From the NCBI GenBank assembly GCA_034440375.1, contig JAWXBZ010000041.1, forward strand, positions 1-52,280: a DNA stretch of 52,280 nt, written 5' to 3'. Source of the stretch: Candidatus Eiseniibacteriota bacterium. Its GTDB lineage: Bacteria > Eisenbacteria > RBG-16-71-46 > JABDJR01 > JAWXBZ01. Shown piece after piece: positions 1 to 31,081 of this stretch (within the stretch, counting starts at the first letter, position 1; each line of letters starts with the position of its first letter). Below the pieces are notes generated by a model. It was given only the letters and a program-made list of their open reading frames with translations. It had not been told where the DNA came from and made no database searches. Position numbers and translations under genes: made by a program.

Positions 1-249
1 CTGGTACGCGATGCCTGTCGGGCGAGAAGCCTCCTGTCGCGCGCACTCCTGGGCATCATCGAATCCGATCTGGACGCTTCCGGCCGCCCGCGGGCGGCCC
101 TGATGGAGCTGAACGACCCGCTGCGCCGCGCCCTGGACGCCGGGGATCATCCCCGTGACCTGGCGCTGGCCGCTGCCATCGGCGGCTACCGGCCGCTGGC
201 GGCCCGACTCCACTCCAGCCGGTCGGAAACCGGTCGGGCGGCGGCGTAA
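1..249 (+). CDS. Partial CDS (3' end), resembles C-terminus of a PilB/GspE/PilT-type secretion ATPase-like protein
   Basis: Frame 1 is open from base 1 to TAA 247-249, which overlaps the pilT ATG (TAATG). It reads ...RAALMELNDPLRRALDAG...LALAAAIGGYRPL..., similar to the GspE/PilB C-terminal pattern. Not in the ORF track. Confidence 0.5.
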   Translation: MVRDACRARSLLSRALLGIIESDLDASGRPRAALMELNDPLRRALDAGDHPRDLALAAAIGGYRPLAARLHSSRSETGRAAA

Positions 250-1349
250 TGGACATCACCGAGCTCCTCGTCTTCACCAAGAACCAGGGCGCGTCGGACC
301 TGCACCTCTCAAGCGGCATGCCGCCACTGGTCCGAATCAACGGCGACATGACGCCGCTTGACATGCCGCCTCTTGATCGCGAGTCGCTGCACACGCTGAT
401 CTGGGACATCATGAACGATGTCCAGAAGAAGACCTTCGAGGAAAATCACGAACTCGACTTCGCCATCGACCTGGCCGGCGTCTGCCGCTTCCGCGTGAAC
501 TGCTTCGTGCAGCGCCGCGGTGAGGGAGCCGTATTCCGTGTCATCCCCTCTGAAATCAAGTCAATGCAGGACCTGGCCCTCCCGGCCGTCCTGGCCGAAA
601 TGGCCATGAGGGAGAAGGGGCTGATCCTGGTGACCGGACCAACCGGATCCGGCAAATCGACCACGCTGGCGGCCATGCTGGACCATGTCAACCGCAAACG
701 CCGCGGCCACATCATCACGGTCGAGGACCCGATCGAGTTCGTTCACGACTCCAAGAATTGCCTCGTCAACCAGCGGGAGATCGGCCCCCACACCCACTCC
801 TTCGCCAACGCGTTGAAGAGCGCGCTGCGCGAGGATCCGGACGTGATCCTGGTCGGCGAGCTGCGGGATCTGGAAACGATGCAGCTGGCGATCACCGCGG
901 CCGAAACCGGCCATGTCGTGTTCGGTACGCTTCATACCAACTCGGCGGCCAAGACGATCGATCGTGTCATCGACATCTTCCCATCCAGTCAACAGGCCCA
1001 GATCCGGACGATGTTCTCCGAGTCGATCGTCGGCATCGTCTGTCAGACGCTGCTCAAGCGATCCGACAAGAAGGGGCGCGTGGCGGGCCTCGAGATCCTG
1101 GTCGGCGTTCCGGCGCTTCGCAACCTGATCCGCGAGGACAAGACGGCCCAGATCATGTCGGTCATCCAGACCGGCGGGCAGTACGGCATGCAGAGCATGG
1201 ATCAGTGTCTTAAGAACCTGGTCATGCAGGGCGCCGTCACCCGCGAGGAGGCCGCCAGAAAATCAACCAATCCCGCCCTGTTCCTGGGTGGTGTCGCCGA
1301 ACCGGCGCCGGCCGCCGCGCCGGCCACCGGGGTGAAGAAAGCGGCATAG
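249..1349 (+). CDS. pilT: Type IV pilus retraction ATPase PilT
   Basis: ASDLHL N-terminus, Walker A GPTGSGKS, TVEDPIE, ALREDPD, GTLHT and the PilT-specific ALRNLIRE motif. Confidence 0.95.
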   Translation: MDITELLVFTKNQGASDLHLSSGMPPLVRINGDMTPLDMPPLDRESLHTLIWDIMNDVQKKTFEENHELDFAIDLAGVCRFRVNCFVQRRGEGAVFRVIPSEIKSMQDLALPAVLAEMAMREKGLILVTGPTGSGKSTTLAAMLDHVNRKRRGHIITVEDPIEFVHDSKNCLVNQREIGPHTHSFANALKSALREDPDVILVGELRDLETMQLAITAAETGHVVFGTLHTNSAAKTIDRVIDIFPSSQQAQIRTMFSESIVGIVCQTLLKRSDKKGRVAGLEILVGVPALRNLIREDKTAQIMSVIQTGGQYGMQSMDQCLKNLVMQGAVTREEAARKSTNPALFLGGVAEPAPAAAPATGVKKAA

Positions 1350-1359
1350 GGACTCCGAA

Positions 1360-2475
1360 ATGGTCGATATCATTCAGGTCCTCGTCTCCATGGTGCCAAC
1401 GAATTCGTCGGACCTCTATTTCACGGCTGGCGCACCGGTTCAGCGCCGGGTGAATGGCAGTTGCCAGCCAGCCTCCGAACTGATCACGGCGGCCGACACG
1501 AAGGCCATCGCTGATTTTTTCATGAGCGAGACACAGAAGGAGGAATTTCGCGCCACCCGCGAGATGAACCTGGCCTATTCCATTCCCAACGTCGGACGCT
1601 ACCGGGTCAATATTTTCGTGCAGCGCGGCGCCGTTGGTCTCGTCATCCGACTGGTCAAGATTCAGATTCCGACGATGGACGAACTGGGCCTCCCGCAGAT
1701 ACTGCGCGACCTGGTCATGCTTCGGAAGGGACTCGTCCTGGTCACGGGGCCGACCGGTACCGGCAAGTCAACGACGCTGGCATCCATGATCGACTACCGC
1801 AATGACAACGACTCGGGCCACATCCTGACTGTCGAGGATCCCATCGAATTCGTTCACCCCCACAAGAAATCGCTGGTGACCCAGCGCGAAGTCGGCATGG
1901 ACACCGACTCGTACCACGCAGCCCTCAAAAACGCGCTCCGACAGGCGCCCGATGTCGTCCTGATCGGCGAGATCCGCGATGCCGTGGCCATGGAAGCGGC
2001 CATCACCTTCGCCGAGACCGGCCACCTGGTTCTCGGCACCCTCCACACGCTGAACGCCAACCAGACGATCGACCGCGTGCTCAGCTTTTTCCCCCGGGGA
2101 ATGCACGATCTGATCTACCTCCAGTTGAGCCTCACGCTGGCCGGCATCGTCTGCCAGCGACTCATCCCCTGCCAGGACGGCCAGGGCCGTCGGGCGGCCC
2201 TGGAAATTCTGATGACCACGCCCCGAATCCGCGACCAGATCCACAAGGGAGAGGTGGCCGCCCTGAAGGTGTCGATGGAAGAATCAACCCAGGAGGGGTG
2301 CCAGACCTTCGACCAGGCGCTCTACAAACTCTGGAAAGACGGCGTCATCAGCCTGGAGGAAGCCCTCCGCAACGCCGAGAGCGCCAACAACCTCAAGGTC
2401 AAGATCCGAATGGAAAACCCCGGCCTTTCCATCGACGCCGACGCCCCGAAGCTGTCGCTGCATCGTTTGCGGTAG
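1360..2475 (+). CDS. pilU: Type IV pilus ATPase PilU
   Basis: SDLYFTAG, GPTGTGKS, LRQAPDV, TLHTLNANQ, QTFDQAL; lacks the AIRNLIRE motif; directly follows pilT. Confidence 0.9.
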   Translation: MVDIIQVLVSMVPTNSSDLYFTAGAPVQRRVNGSCQPASELITAADTKAIADFFMSETQKEEFRATREMNLAYSIPNVGRYRVNIFVQRGAVGLVIRLVKIQIPTMDELGLPQILRDLVMLRKGLVLVTGPTGTGKSTTLASMIDYRNDNDSGHILTVEDPIEFVHPHKKSLVTQREVGMDTDSYHAALKNALRQAPDVVLIGEIRDAVAMEAAITFAETGHLVLGTLHTLNANQTIDRVLSFFPRGMHDLIYLQLSLTLAGIVCQRLIPCQDGQGRRAALEILMTTPRIRDQIHKGEVAALKVSMEESTQEGCQTFDQALYKLWKDGVISLEEALRNAESANNLKVKIRMENPGLSIDADAPKLSLHRLR

Positions 2476-2651
2476 TTTCGGCGACGGGTCGCCGTGCCGC
2501 GCATCGACCGGGTGCCCGCGCCGCGTGCGCCTTGTTTCAACCATTCATACTGAACGGCCGCAACTCCAATTTGATCTGACGGGATGCGTCACGTGCCGAC
2601 TGATCGCCGCTGATGCCCGAATTGAGGGTCTTGTCAGAAATTCCTCAGCCG

Positions 2652-2667
2652 TGGCATGCAAGTTGCT
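2652..2667 (+). promoter_or_regulatory. Sigma54 (RpoN) -24/-12 promoter
   Basis: TGGCATGCAAGTTGCT versus consensus TGGCACG-N4-TTGCW. GG at 2653 and GC at 2665 have the exact 12-bp spacing. A TGACG-N5-CGTCA palindrome lies upstream at 2577-2591. Confidence 0.75.
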
Positions 2668-2677
2668 TTGTTTTTCA

Positions 2678-2790
2678 AGAGTCGACCCGACTGGTTCGGG
2701 GAGACCCAACTACGACAAACGAGAGCTCGTACGGCAATAGCTGGCCTGAACCGCTGGTACAACCGTACGAGCTCTCCTCATTTCTTCCGA
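2678..2790 (+). ncRNA. Candidate sigma54-dependent structured small RNA
   Basis: Lies downstream of the sigma54 site in a convergent intergenic region with no credible ORF. Hairpin CCCGA-CTGGT-TCGGG, then a perfect 14-bp stem 2721-2734/2763-2776, then a pyrimidine tract. Ends are approximate. Confidence 0.55.
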
Positions 2791-2833
2791 CCCGGCTTCG
2801 TGACCGTGTAAAAATTGGATGTCGGGGTCATCG

Positions 2834-3601
2834 TCAGCCGCTGTCGCTCCGATCGTCGTCCCATCGGGACCCATCACGCAGCCGGTTCGCCTCCTCGTCG
2901 ACCATCCATAGGAGTTGACCCGGGTCGGGACGAACGAGGCTCGCGGGGGAATCGGGACCGGGTTCGCCCGTCAGGGCCCGGGCCACGGCGCGGGCCTTTG
3001 AAATACCGGAAGCCAGGATATGGACATGGCGGGCGGCGTTGATCACCGGCAGCGTCAACGTCAGCCGCGGCCAGTCGTCGGTGCCGGTGACGGCCGCCAC
3101 GCGTTGGTCGGTCATGCCGAGCGTCGGCCGGTGCGGAAACAGCGAGGCGGTATGGCCGTCGGCGCCCACGCCGAGGAGGACAAGATCAAAGCGGACGCTT
3201 CCCCGCTCCTTCGAAACATTCGTTTCGATCTGCTGATCGTAGCGTCGGGCAGAGGCTTCGAGCCCGGTTGGATCGGCCACCATGCGATGGACCCGTGATG
3301 GCTCGAGGTCGAGATGCGCCAGCAACGTGTCGCGTGCCATCCGGTAGTTACTGGCCGGATCCTCGATCGGCACACCCCGTTCGTCGCCCCACCAGAAATG
3401 AACATTCTTCCAGTCAACCCGATGACGGGAATCCGGCATGGCCAGTCTCTGGTACAGGCCGGCCGGCGTCGCCCCTCCGGCCAGTACCAGGTGTGCGACG
3501 CCACGGGCGGCGATGGCCTCACCCAGTGAGGCCGTGGCGCGGCGCGCGGCCGTGCTGAACAGCTCGATCGGCGTCGGGAGGACCAGGATCGTCGGTGTCA
3601 T
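2834..3601 (-). CDS. pgl: 6-phosphogluconolactonase
   Basis: LAGGATP, FWWGDER, SNYRMAR, DLVLLGVGADGHTASLFP, RLTLTLP; last gene of the zwf-opcA operon. Confidence 0.93.
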   Translation of the reverse strand: MTPTILVLPTPIELFSTAARRATASLGEAIAARGVAHLVLAGGATPAGLYQRLAMPDSRHRVDWKNVHFWWGDERGVPIEDPASNYRMARDTLLAHLDLEPSRVHRMVADPTGLEASARRYDQQIETNVSKERGSVRFDLVLLGVGADGHTASLFPHRPTLGMTDQRVAAVTGTDDWPRLTLTLPVINAARHVHILASGISKARAVARALTGEPGPDSPASLVRPDPGQLLWMVDEEANRLRDGSRWDDDRSDSG

Positions 3602-4722
3602 GGCCCGGGGTCGATCGCCCCGTCGGAATCATCGGCGGCGGCCATTCGAAGCGCCCGGACAAAATAGGCGTCGGTTTCCCGCCGCTCGATCACCCGGCAA
3701 AGAAGATCGTCGTCGGGGTCGATCGGCCGGGGAATGCGGATCGGATCGCCGCCCGCGTGGGTGACGACCAGTGCCCCGCTTTCCATCTGGATCGCCATCG
3801 ACTGACCGCCCGCGATGTCGAACTGAACGCCGACGATGCGTCCCGCCGGTCCCTCCCCTGCCACCGGAGAAATCGTGGCCCGAAACGCCCCACCGGTCGA
3901 CCGGGCCAGGCGTTCGCGCAGCCACCCCGCCAGCAGACGCGGGCGGACCGGCAACGACCCGCCGGGTTGGCTGATTGTCTCGATCGTCGCTCCGATGATC
4001 GTCATGGGATCGATCGAGCACTGGTCGACCGCATCGGCCAGCGCTTCGCGCCAGGGGAGCAGGCGGACCCAGTTGAGGTCGATCGGGCGCATTCCGGGAC
4101 CCTGGGGACGCTCCGCGAGGGCCAGCGCCCGGGAAAGAAATGCACCGGTTTCGGCGGCCAGCGCCGAGTCGAGGATGACCTGATCCACGAAGGGATCGAG
4201 ATCGCACAGGAACTGCGCGCCGCGCGCCGGTTCGACCGGCCTTGCTTCCGGCGCCATCATCAAAGCCACCTCCGGCCAGTAAAGGACGACGGGCAGGTCG
4301 GGCAACAGCAGCGGCAGGACCAGGTTCGACAGGTGGGCATCGCCTGCCGGTGTTGCGCGGATGGTGACCTGCTCGCAGCAAACCTGGCGGCCGCCGGCCA
4401 CGCGATGGCAATGGGCCGAGACGAAAGCCGCGAGCGGCTCCGGGACCCCACCCGCCGACTCGAGCTGAACGATGATCGCCCGACAGGGAGTGCCCTCGGT
4501 CAATCGCCCAACCGCCGCGGCCATCCACTGCGCCGCGTCGTCTCCGGGCACGACGGCGATGAGCGTGAGGAGCGCGGCCCGCGTGACCGGCGTGCTTCCG
4601 GAAGGGTCTCTGGCTTCCGCCACCGACTTCCAGAGGGACGCCAGTTCCTCTTCCAATGCGCGCACCGACACGGAGCGGGACTCGGTCGGAAAAACGGGGA
4701 TGCCACTCACAGGTTTCGCCAT
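3598..4722 (-). CDS. opcA: Glucose-6-phosphate dehydrogenase assembly protein OpcA
   Basis: TRAALLTL, CCEQV, LLLPDLPVVLYW, DLNWVRLLPWR motifs; between zwf and pgl. Confidence 0.88.
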   Translation of the reverse strand: MAKPVSGIPVFPTESRSVSVRALEEELASLWKSVAEARDPSGSTPVTRAALLTLIAVVPGDDAAQWMAAAVGRLTEGTPCRAIIVQLESAGGVPEPLAAFVSAHCHRVAGGRQVCCEQVTIRATPAGDAHLSNLVLPLLLPDLPVVLYWPEVALMMAPEARPVEPARGAQFLCDLDPFVDQVILDSALAAETGAFLSRALALAERPQGPGMRPIDLNWVRLLPWREALADAVDQCSIDPMTIIGATIETISQPGGSLPVRPRLLAGWLRERLARSTGGAFRATISPVAGEGPAGRIVGVQFDIAGGQSMAIQMESGALVVTHAGGDPIRIPRPIDPDDDLLCRVIERRETDAYFVRALRMAAADDSDGAIDPGP

Positions 4723-6230
4723 TCACGTCCATCCGCGGCAATCCAGCTATCGGCTTCGGGTGGTCCCCAGTGACCGGCCTCGTAGGTCGGAAGCCGTGTC
4801 TTCGGGGCTGCGGCCCAGTGATCCAGAATCGGCTGTACCCATCCCCAGGCGCCCTCGATTTCGTCCCGGCGGATGAACAGCGAGGCGTCGCCGAGCAGCG
4901 CGTCGAGAATCAGCCGTTCGTATGCCTCCGGGATGTCGGTGCCGAACGAACTGCCGTACATGAAATCCATCTTGACGGCCTGTGTCCGGATGTCCGGACC
5001 GGGGCGCTTGGCGCCAAAACGAAGAGCGATACCCTCGTCGGGTTGGATCCGGAGAGTCAAGACATTGGCGGTCAGTCCGTCCGGCCCCACTGCCTCGAAA
5101 ACTTGCTGGGGCGGTTTCTTGAACTGAATGGCGATCTCGGTGGCACGGCGGGGCATTCGCTTGCCCGACCTTAGATAGAACGGCACGCCGGCCCATCGCC
5201 AGTTGTCGATTTCAAGACGGACGGCCAACCAGCTCTCCGTCATCGAGTCGGGGGCCACGCCAGGTTCCTCGCGGTAGCCGGGCACCGCCCCGCCGTCGAT
5301 GGAGCCGGCGGCATACTGGGCCCGCACCAGGTGCGTGGCCACGGTGGCGGGGTCAAGCGGCTTCAGCGCCCGGATCACCTTGACCTTTTCGTCGCGAATG
5401 GCTTCGCCTCGAAAAGGCATCGGCGGTTCCATGGCCACCAGCGAAACGAGTTGCATCAGGTGATTCTGCAGAACATCCCGCAGGACTCCAGCCTTCTCGT
5501 AATAGCCGGCCCGCGACTCAACGCCGACCTCCTCGGCCACGGTGATCTGAACGTGGTCGACATGACTTCGATTCCAGATCGGCTCGAAGATGCCGTTGCC
5601 AAAACGGAAGACCAGAATGTTCTGGACCGTTTCCTTGCCGAGGTAATGATCGATTCGGAAGATCTGCGATTCGTCGAATATGCCGCTGATGAGCCCGTTG
5701 AGCGCCCGGGCCGACTCCAGGTCCTGGCCAAAGGGCTTCTCCACGACCACGCGCGACCAGGGTGACTTTTTGGCCTCACGCGCGACCAGTTGCGCCGCGG
5801 CCAGGCCGCGCAAAATTGGTTCGAAAGCTTCCGGCGGCGTGGCCAGGTAGAAGAGCCGGTTGGATGGCCGGTTGGCCTCCGTCTCCACCTTTGTCAATCG
5901 GGCGGCCAGTGCCGGCCAGGTGTCGGCATGAGTGAAGTCGCCGGCCACGTAACGGAAAAGTGCGGCGAACTCGTCACCCCGGGCCGGGGGCTCGGGACCG
6001 ATGGCCGCCAGGACCTCGGCGGCGAACTCGGCATCGCTCATTTCGCGGCGACCGACACCGACGACCCGAAATCCCGGCGGCAGGTGACGCTGCTGGAAGA
6101 GTCGGAAGAGGGCCGGTATCAGCTTGCGTCGGGTCAGATCGCCGGAGGCCCCGAAGATGACAAGCGTTGCCGGGTCGGGCATCCGTTCACGCGGAAGTCC
6201 CTCGCGCAGGGGATTGGTTGGCAGGGTCAT
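4707..6230 (-). CDS. zwf: Glucose-6-phosphate 1-dehydrogenase
   Basis: IFGASGDLTRRKL, EKPFG, RIDHYLGKETVQN, WAGVPFYLRSGK. Start set at ATG 6230 (MTLPTNPLREGL). Confidence 0.95.
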   Translation of the reverse strand: MTLPTNPLREGLPRERMPDPATLVIFGASGDLTRRKLIPALFRLFQQRHLPPGFRVVGVGRREMSDAEFAAEVLAAIGPEPPARGDEFAALFRYVAGDFTHADTWPALAARLTKVETEANRPSNRLFYLATPPEAFEPILRGLAAAQLVAREAKKSPWSRVVVEKPFGQDLESARALNGLISGIFDESQIFRIDHYLGKETVQNILVFRFGNGIFEPIWNRSHVDHVQITVAEEVGVESRAGYYEKAGVLRDVLQNHLMQLVSLVAMEPPMPFRGEAIRDEKVKVIRALKPLDPATVATHLVRAQYAAGSIDGGAVPGYREEPGVAPDSMTESWLAVRLEIDNWRWAGVPFYLRSGKRMPRRATEIAIQFKKPPQQVFEAVGPDGLTANVLTLRIQPDEGIALRFGAKRPGPDIRTQAVKMDFMYGSSFGTDIPEAYERLILDALLGDASLFIRRDEIEGAWGWVQPILDHWAAAPKTRLPTYEAGHWGPPEADSWIAADGREWRNL

Positions 6231-6284
6231 GGAACCAAGCCTAGCAGGCCGGTCAAACGGTTCAAGTCCGGGAAAACGTGACAT

Positions 6285-30178: not shown

Positions 30179-31081
30179 TCACCCACCTTCTACCACGACA
30201 CCGCTTGAAACCGATCGACACAGATCCGCGCTCCAGCCCCGACGGATGACCCGGTTACGGGCCCGACGAGCCATTTCGCGGGTGGCGAAGATTCCGAACA
30301 CGGACGCTCCGCTCCCCGTCAGCAAAGCAACCCGGGCGCCCAGGGACGTCAGAAGCCGCTTGCGTTCAGTGATGTCCGGCACGTCAGGCACCAGGCCAGC
30401 TTCTAGGTTGTTCTCCAGATGCGCAAGATCGGTCCGTGACAGCGAACCGCCCTCAGCCAGCGCCAGAATATTAGGTGGGGGCTTTGAACCTGTCAACTCC
30501 CTTTCGTATCGTGAGTAAGCCCATCCGGTATCAATGCGCTGGCGGCCGTGCACCACCACGAATTCAAATCGCGTTCGAGTAATCAGTGGTCTGAGTCGAG
30601 TCCCTCGACCCCGGCCAAGCTGGAGCCCCCCCTGCAGAAAGAACGGAACGTCCGATCCGATTCCCGCGCCGATCCGGGCCAGCTGGCGGTGGGAGAGCCC
30701 GGTCCCCCACAAGCGGTCGAGGAGGACCAGCGCCGCGGCGGCATCACTCGACCCCCCACCCAGTCCGGCACCCCAGGGGATCCTCTTTTGGAGCTCGAAC
30801 TCGGCACCGGCCGTGACGCCGGTTTCGGCTGCCAGCGCCAGGGCCGCCCGAATGATCAGGTTCGTCTGGTCTGTCGCCAGTTCCCTGGCATCTGCTGTCA
30901 GTCGAAGGCCGTGCTTTCGAGGCCGGACCATAAGCCGGTCGTAAAGATCGATGGCCTGGAAGAGGGTGACCAGATCGTGATAACCGTCCCGGCGACGCCT
31001 CGTAATCCAGAGCCCCAGGTTGAGCTTGGCCGGCGCGCGCGCGACGAGCGCCCCCTGGGCCGGGAGCCGGGCTCGACTCAC
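30179..31081 (-). CDS. ispE: 4-diphosphocytidyl-2-C-methyl-D-erythritol kinase
   Basis: APAKLNL.L, DGYH, KRIP.GAGLGGGSSDAA, GSDVPFF, TGSGASVFG. GTG 31081 overlaps the upstream stop. Confidence 0.93.
   Translation of the reverse strand: MSRARLPAQGALVARAPAKLNLGLWITRRRRDGYHDLVTLFQAIDLYDRLMVRPRKHGLRLTADARELATDQTNLIIRAALALAAETGVTAGAEFELQKRIPWGAGLGGGSSDAAAALVLLDRLWGTGLSHRQLARIGAGIGSDVPFFLQGGLQLGRGRGTRLRPLITRTRFEFVVVHGRQRIDTGWAYSRYERELTGSKPPPNILALAEGGSLSRTDLAHLENNLEAGLVPDVPDITERKRLLTSLGARVALLTGSGASVFGIFATREMARRARNRVIRRGWSADLCRSVSSGVVVEGG

Follow-up and report, generated by a model that had tools for sequence, protein, structure and literature searches.

Introduction

Enhancer-dependent promoters drive the regulatory RNAs Qrr (LuxO), CrcZ (CbrB) and Pxr (Myxococcus), and the same is predicted for the locus described here. 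Qrr needs Hfq, and CrcZ sponges Hfq/Crc; no hfq was found in the genome that carries the present candidate. The candidate differs from Qrr, CrcZ and Pxr, with which it was compared through Rfam only, in having no Rfam match to any of them. Structured elements between convergent genes also include bidirectional intrinsic terminators, a general type.

In Enterobacteriaceae, glmY and glmZ encode sigma-54-dependent small RNAs controlled by sigma-54 plus GlrR (PMC3844500). As they are described there, these genes resemble the candidate in being stand-alone and non-coding, in having a -24/-12 promoter preceded by palindromic activator sites (putative in the candidate) and in giving rise to a short structured RNA that has a 3' hairpin (predicted in the candidate). 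They differ in their family-wide conservation, their overlapping sigma-70 promoter and their known partners, whereas the candidate is confined to one species and is without an Rfam match. The sigma-54 regulome of Desulfovibrio vulgaris includes four non-coding RNAs in the account of PMC4641369. This organism, like that of the candidate, is free-living and has many activators (19 in the candidate's genome), some of which drive non-coding RNAs, a role that is predicted for the candidate. By contrast to several of the Desulfovibrio RNAs in that account, which adjoin an activator gene, the candidate lies on a 52-kb contig that has none; the Desulfovibrio RNAs are moreover backed by comparative genomics, which lends the candidate no support.

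Here, a putative sigma-54-dependent small RNA gene is analyzed in a member of Candidatus Eiseniibacteriota (Eisenbacteria). No literature mentioning both Eisenbacteria and sigma-54 was found.

Results

A sigma-54 site and a long hairpin between converging genes

The window, that is, the whole stretch of 52,280 nucleotides analyzed, corresponds to contig C41, one of 264 in a metagenome-assembled genome of 3.96 Mb that is 93.7% complete and has 64% G+C. The gap of interest (2476–2833, 358 bp, 57.5% G+C) separates pilU, on the plus strand, from pgl, on the minus strand, so that both genes converge on it, and the 3.4 kb downstream of the gap is all coded on the minus strand. An earlier note, made from the sequence alone, had listed a set of features for this gap, and each of them was found in place on reading the sequence (Table 1). 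The sigma-54-type element reads TGGCATGCAAGTTGCT. The small hairpin is made of CCCGA (2686–2690), CTGGT and TCGGG (2696–2700), and is followed by an A/C-rich linker, CAACTACGACAAAC. The arms of the large hairpin are GAGAGCTCGTACGG (2721–2734) and CCGTACGAGCTCTC (2763–2776), with two GCTGG motifs in the 28 nucleotides between them, and the tail after it reads CTCATTTCTTCC. In each 14-bp arm, the palindromic hexamers GAGCTC and CGTACG overlap (2723–2733 and 2764–2774), so that the stem carries two copies of each symmetric site, which may be chance.

Table 1. Features of the pilU–pgl region (window coordinates)
Feature	Coordinates	Strand	Basis
pilT	249–1349	+	ORF
pilU-type twitching ATPase gene	1360–2475	+	ORF; PF00437 T2SSE, E 1e-41
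Terminator-like hairpin with CCTTGTTTCA tail, probably the terminator of pilU itself	2517–2539	+	Terminator scan
Palindrome TGACG-GGATG-CGTCA, a possible activator site	2577–2591		Read in sequence; centre ~94 bp before predicted start
Sigma-54 -24/-12 element TGGCAT-N5-TTGCT	2652–2667	+	Sequence reading; strict-motif genome scan
Predicted transcription start	2677–2680	+	Inferred: 11–14 nt after -12 GC
5' hairpin, core CCCGA/UCGGG, loop CUGGU	2681–2705	+	Fold -13.2 kcal/mol, z -1.9
A/C-rich linker CAACUACGACAAAC, 14 nt	2707–2720	+	Unpaired in MFE and centroid folds
Perfect 14-bp stem with 28-nt interior; candidate RNA 3' end and, on the minus strand, candidate pgl-operon terminator	2721–2776		
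Pyrimidine-rich tail CUCAUUUCUUCCGA, no canonical U-tract	2777–2790	+	Not called by terminator scan
6-phosphogluconolactonase gene pgl, last of zwf-opcA-pgl	2834–3601	-	PF01182, E 1.7e-67; ORFs
opcA	3598–4722	-	ORF
zwf	4707–6284	-	ORF

A terminator scan of 2300–3000 made a single call, at 2517–2529 plus its tail, directly 3' of pilU. This gene thus has a terminator-like site of its own, and the large hairpin is not needed for it. Inspection of the sequence and of the list of open reading frames revealed no ATG, GTG or TTG between the predicted transcription start (~2678) and the end of the large hairpin, or on to 2800, which bore out the claim that no open reading frame with a ribosome-binding site follows the promoter.

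The probable promoter and the sigma-54 machinery

The site at 2652–2667, described earlier as near-consensus, is an exact match to TGGCAY-N5-TTGCW, with GG at -24, GC at -12 and the exact spacing. Transcription from sigma-54 promoters usually starts 11–14 nucleotides past the -12 GC, and the predicted start is placed on this basis. The genome encodes RpoN (PF04552, 216.5 bits) and 19 activators (PF00158 matches at 172 bits or more), none of them on the 52-kb contig of the window. The strict motif was found ten times in the genome, both strands included, and eight of these matches lie outside genes as delimited by crude gene calls. Control patterns, namely the reversed motif and spacers of 3, 4, 6 and 7, gave 5, 3, 2, 3 and 3 matches, respectively, of which 1, 2, 1, 2 and 0 were intergenic by the same calls, which sets the chance expectation at about 1.2 intergenic matches. 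An open reading frame on the same strand directly follows at least five of the ten strict-motif sites, and a small membrane-protein gene follows a sixth, indicating that strict intergenic matches are mostly true promoters in this genome. False sites would nevertheless collect among those facing no gene, which are four: the window site, one at C252:34772 and two at contig ends. Taking these counts together, we estimate a likelihood of roughly one half to two thirds that the site at 2652–2667 would fire as a promoter.

Activator sites of sigma-54 promoters are expected some 70–200 bp ahead of the promoter. The palindrome TGACG-N5-CGTCA lies 75 nucleotides before the -24 element. The motif is common, with 22 copies in the genome (94 if spacers of 3–9 are allowed). 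Among 40 relaxed sigma-54 matches, only the window site and C252:34772 have a perfect TGACG...CGTCA within 300 nucleotides upstream, and the palindrome does not recur at the same spacing before other sigma-54 sites of the genome, the one other copy being spaced differently. A direct repeat with a 10-bp period, CTGATCGCCG then CTGATGCCCG, occupies 2600–2619, in the interval that separates the palindrome from the -24 element. Elsewhere in the genome, a stretch of contig C148 (30150–32300) has sigma-54 sites at 30651 (minus), 30866 (plus) and 31966 (minus), all three within 1.3 kb. At least two of these sites appear to serve as promoters of very small membrane-protein genes, and C148 also carries an activator gene at a distance of 6 kb.

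Structure of the predicted RNA

The RNA predicted from 2678–2800 folds with -47.2 kcal/mol (z -3.6). This signal is almost wholly that of the large hairpin (z -6.8, none of 200 shuffles folding equally well); the signal of the 5' hairpin is marginal, its stability being equalled in 9 of 200 shuffles. Within the large hairpin, the two GCUGG copies pair in a weak inner helix that contains G-U, with a z of -0.5 and 47 of 200 shuffles reaching the same stability. The three CUGG motifs that the earlier note emphasized are all present (three CTGG in 113 nucleotides versus 0.74 expected, P 0.039 before correction for the choice of motif). As a display they are weak, two of them forming one G-U helix with each other and the third being variable between strains, as described below. 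The whole element is single-copy in its own genome according to BLAST.

Candidate trans-acting segments were compared with 2,542 translation-start regions defined by crude start-codon calls. Best energies were -26.7 kcal/mol for the linker and -35.2 kcal/mol for the 3' tail, neither of which was significant: the best of ten shuffled-seed controls ranged from -27.3 to -32.5 kcal/mol for the linker and from -28.8 to -34.2 kcal/mol for the 3' tail. Energies being no better than those of shuffled seeds, a role of the linker in trans received no support from this crude scan.

Searches for homologues

Rfam 15 models were searched against 2000–3400 with cmscan at E values up to 10, and no family matched. 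The best score was that of a plant miRNA model on the bare hairpin (E 1.2, 18.6 bits versus a gathering score of 64). The earlier statement that the RNA could be assigned to no known family thus held even at a permissive threshold. A BLAST search with the 358-nucleotide gap against 40 relatives, of which only one is in the same family and eight in the same order, found nothing beyond a 27-nucleotide chance match. A covariance model (R1), built from the one sequence and its predicted structure, was run against 150 further genomes of the phylum and matched in 14 of them at E up to 1, with a best score of 23.5 bits, which is the chance level for 150 genomes; these matches are noise only. None of the 13 R1 matches inspected had a -24/-12 site upstream, and most were in coding sequence.

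PilU relatives are encoded at 80 metagenome loci; the gap is present at just two of these, both identical to the window. In the nearest relative (L036; PilU 88% identical, pilU DNA 82.7%), the available sequence ends 172 nucleotides after pilU, and in those 172 nucleotides neither an alignment to the window gap nor the palindrome was seen. One locus, L065, was considered as a homologue and rejected, the sigma-54 site after its pilU leading into a protein gene. The sister genus has a co-directional gene of 189 codons after pilU (68% identical) and a different gene, likewise co-directional, after pgl (46% identical), with no synteny. No -24/-12 site follows pilU or pgl in the relatives compared for synteny, and the arrangement is not kept. 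The proposed connection with type IV pili therefore found no support, given the terminator-like hairpin of pilU itself and the different gene after pilU in the sister genus. Likewise, the homologues and conserved upstream -24/-12 site to which the earlier note had looked were not found outside the species in the 40 relatives, 150 phylum genomes and 80 metagenome loci, and the candidate has so far been seen in one species only.

A different site came to light in the metagenome loci. Eleven of the 80 (L077, L082, L092–L094, L097, L098, L100, L103, L105 and L109; PilU 56–61% identical) have TGGTAY-N5-TTGCT some 1.2 kb before the pilU match, directly ahead of the preceding pilT-sized gene, so that the pilT-pilU pair looks sigma-54-driven in that more distant lineage. 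The 248 nucleotides present before pilT in the window contain no such site.

Natural strain variation

None of 21 sequencing runs listed was an RNA library containing the stretch. Natural variants were sought in four DNA runs, in which only one contig, X9, spans the element. X9 (988 nucleotides, depth 5.9) covers 2530–3200 and represents a strain about 98% identical, with 15 differences, 14 of them itemized, and one insertion. The changes in the gap are T2629C, G2651A, T2657C, G2694C, T2711C and an extra G after 2796. The pgl gene has at least nine changes, of which seven, or eight if A3152G belongs to X9, are at third codon positions. T2657C turns TGGCAT into TGGCAC, towards the consensus. 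G2694C destroys the first CUGG, in the loop of the 5' hairpin, by changing it to CUGC. Of the X9 changes, two lie within the predicted RNA, and both affect unpaired nucleotides, at loop position 2694 and linker position 2711; 2721–2776 is unchanged. Two further runs gave short contigs, X11 and X16, that include the stem wholly or in part; X11 showed no difference, and X16 only T2629C, outside the stem. The stem is thus invariant in all three strain contigs, which for this reason provide no compensatory change.

Substitutions in X9 amount to 5 in 304 nucleotides of the gap versus 7–8 in 122 third codon positions of pgl, with a p value of 0.012, 0.045 or 0.058 depending on the location of the one difference that is not itemized. 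This is weak evidence that the gap as a whole may be under constraint, which would not be specific to an RNA.

A conserved sigma-54-linked RNA family in the same genome

The other gene-less strict site, on contig C252, belongs to an element that proved quite different in strength. C252:34772–35081 (locus L157:1473–1782) comprises the sigma-54 site, a variable region and a 96-nucleotide Y-shaped domain closed by a long outer stem, and has relatives in loci L184 and L186–L190. A model of it (R2) found this RNA in seven of nine genomes of the order that were searched, with one weak match among 142 other genomes of the phylum. In the seven sequences, 36 pairs are formed with 94.7% of cells paired, and 19 pairs are changed on both sides, a number reached by none of 500 shuffles (slid controls gave 2–12 such pairs). 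A GG-N10-GC sigma-54-type site lies 96–320 nucleotides upstream in all six loci with upstream DNA, and in six of seven loci the next downstream gene converges on the RNA. It has no match in Rfam. A 19-mer search for the C252 RNA returned 19 loci, among which only the contig of the sister genus was a true homologue. These data identify a clearly real sigma-54-linked family, much stronger than the window candidate, and show that such genes exist in this lineage.

The candidate and the C252 RNA are alike in that they share a genome and that each combines a strict sigma-54 site in a convergent gap, preceded by TGACG...CGTCA, with a lack of open reading frames and a long 3'-terminal stem. They are not homologous: R2, searched against eight sources that included the window, matched nothing in the window at an E of up to 0.001, and it matched the whole genome once, on C252, and only the C252 type is conserved in seven of nine genomes of the order with 19 covarying pairs. 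A shared regulator of the two was considered and set aside. The half-sites are alike, but spacing (N5 versus N6) and distance (75 versus 121–134 nucleotides) differ, and for this reason no common regulator is claimed. The C252 type has a palindrome of its own, of form 7-2-7 and 121–134 nucleotides before the -24 element, whereas that of the candidate is 5-5-5 and 75 nucleotides before it. The former, yGwCGAG-NN-CTCGwCr, precedes the sigma-54 site in four of six genomes (L185, L186, L187, L190) at a nearly fixed distance, and in one genome it is changed symmetrically on both arms (TGTCGAA-CC-GTCGACA); it is a likely activator binding site. In five sister-family genomes (L186–L190), an invariant internal loop of the C252-type RNA reads GGGCAC-N5-(T/A)TGCC (locus position ~1566), a look-alike of a sigma-54 -24/-12 element on the RNA's own strand.

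Discussion

The motifs of the gap are present, no open reading frame follows the promoter-like site, and the genome encodes the sigma-54 machinery. A transcript of about 100–110 nucleotides, its ends, its regulator and its target are inferred. The gap would hold a non-coding RNA gene that stands alone and depends on sigma-54 and an enhancer, a reading that we favor tentatively and hold at somewhat under an even chance. What stands of the small RNA proposed earlier is the site, with rpoN and activators in the genome, the lack of an open reading frame and the lack of an Rfam family; what found no support are the homologues, the conserved promoter, the CUGG display and the connection with pili. 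Against a small RNA also speak the absence of any compensatory change, a hairpin equally stable on the minus strand and the missing U-tract.

In the favored reading, one of the 19 activators, possibly bound at TGACG-N5-CGTCA about 94 bp upstream, would open the TGGCAT-N5-TTGCT promoter. Transcription from about 2678 would produce a short 5' hairpin, a single-stranded A/C-rich linker of 14 nucleotides and a long 3' hairpin, at which most transcripts would stop. The hairpin is shared with the 3' end of zwf-opcA-pgl, so that the RNA would be perfectly complementary to at least 56 nucleotides of that end, which makes action as a cis-antisense RNA the most economical mechanism. Either duplex formation or polymerase collision would then lower zwf-opcA-pgl expression when the sigma-54 signal is on. 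The linker may be a second, trans-acting seed.

The strongest competitor, a real possibility that nonetheless falls well short of probable, is that there is no small RNA, the hairpin being only the terminator of zwf-opcA-pgl, perhaps a bidirectional one, and the sigma-54-like site a product of chance or of non-productive binding. The large hairpin starts 57 nucleotides after the pgl stop codon and is the sole strong hairpin there, which makes it the obvious terminator for the operon. Its fold is as good on the minus strand (-33.0 kcal/mol) as on the plus strand (-31.9 kcal/mol), and this equality, together with the position, means that it may be only a terminator. A bidirectional terminator would likewise be expected to resemble what is found here, a perfect GC-containing stem between converging genes with equal stability on both strands. 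Long perfect stems are, furthermore, the usual terminators of this genome, in which perfect inverted repeats of at least 14 bp with a spacer of 3–40 number only 40 in 3.96 Mb. Thirty of these have a spacer below 15 nucleotides, mostly of 3–8, and are terminator-like. By contrast, the candidate hairpin, with its interior of 28 nucleotides, is among the minority of ten with a spacer of 15 or more. It departs from intrinsic terminators, with loops of 3–8 nucleotides and a U-tract, in having no T run on either strand, the minus-strand tail, GUUUGUCGUAGU, included; and pilU, as the other converging gene, seems to have its own terminator 190 nucleotides upstream of it. Regarding the promoter, the roughly 1.2 chance intergenic matches and the lack of conservation outside the species favor a spurious site, but of the ten strict matches eight lie between genes, with a gene ahead of most of them, and the site stays consensus in the strain variant. 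Sigma-54 sites without a gene are common elsewhere: in the data given in PMC3844500, 41 of 70 sites in Salmonella are intragenic, and 18% of those in E. coli are intragenic or between convergent genes.

Another alternative accepts the promoter and supposes that the hairpin is a poor terminator on the plus strand, so that a long antisense RNA would run into pgl, opcA and zwf and silence them by transcriptional interference. The plus-strand tail, CUCAUUUCUUCC, is indeed without a U-tract, and the genes over the downstream 3.4 kb are all on the opposite strand. In addition, the sigma-54 site of C252 is separated from its conserved RNA domain by a region that includes a 14-bp hairpin tailed by UUUUG, suggesting that hairpins may be read through in this lineage. 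A perfect 14-bp stem of such stability is, however, a strong pause or stop signal, and we regard this alternative as unlikely.

A small protein, or an inverted repeat serving at the DNA level as a protein-binding or mobile-element site, appears very improbable. Open reading frames of 51–101 amino acids overlap the gap, one of 23 codons lies inside the hairpin on the minus strand, and the arms are built of overlapping palindromic hexamers; but the plus-strand frames begin before or inside the promoter, or else 3' of the hairpin, where they run antisense into pgl without a ribosome-binding site, and the element occurs once in the genome.

Least credible of all is the earlier suggestion of a protein-sponge RNA displaying repeated CUGG/GCUGG, for which the excess of CTGG would speak, since that excess is marginal before any correction for motif choice, the two GCUGG copies are not displayed because they are paired with each other, the third CUGG is CUGC in the strain variant, known sponge RNAs have many more motif copies than the three that set this RNA apart from the CsrB/RsmZ type, and neither a CsrA gene (PF02599) nor an Hfq gene was found in the 93.7% complete genome.

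The small RNA gene, if real, would belong to an established kind, the sigma-54-dependent small RNAs, and to none of the described Rfam families. Because this class is established and the candidate is confined to one species, it would alone change little, and the C252-type RNA family is a much better subject of study. If real, the candidate would nevertheless count among the earliest regulatory RNAs put forward for a phylum that is uncultured and lacks genetics, and would provide a case of a sigma-54 promoter making a short antisense RNA against an operon of central carbon metabolism. A broader and quite unlikely conjecture is that it represents a young, species-specific output of an enhancer-dependent small-RNA network that operates in Eisenbacteria in place of Hfq/CsrA circuits, acting as a cis-antisense brake on zwf-opcA-pgl. 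Were this true, an environmental sigma-54 signal would be coupled to oxidative pentose-phosphate flux, alongside the older, order-wide C252-type RNA.
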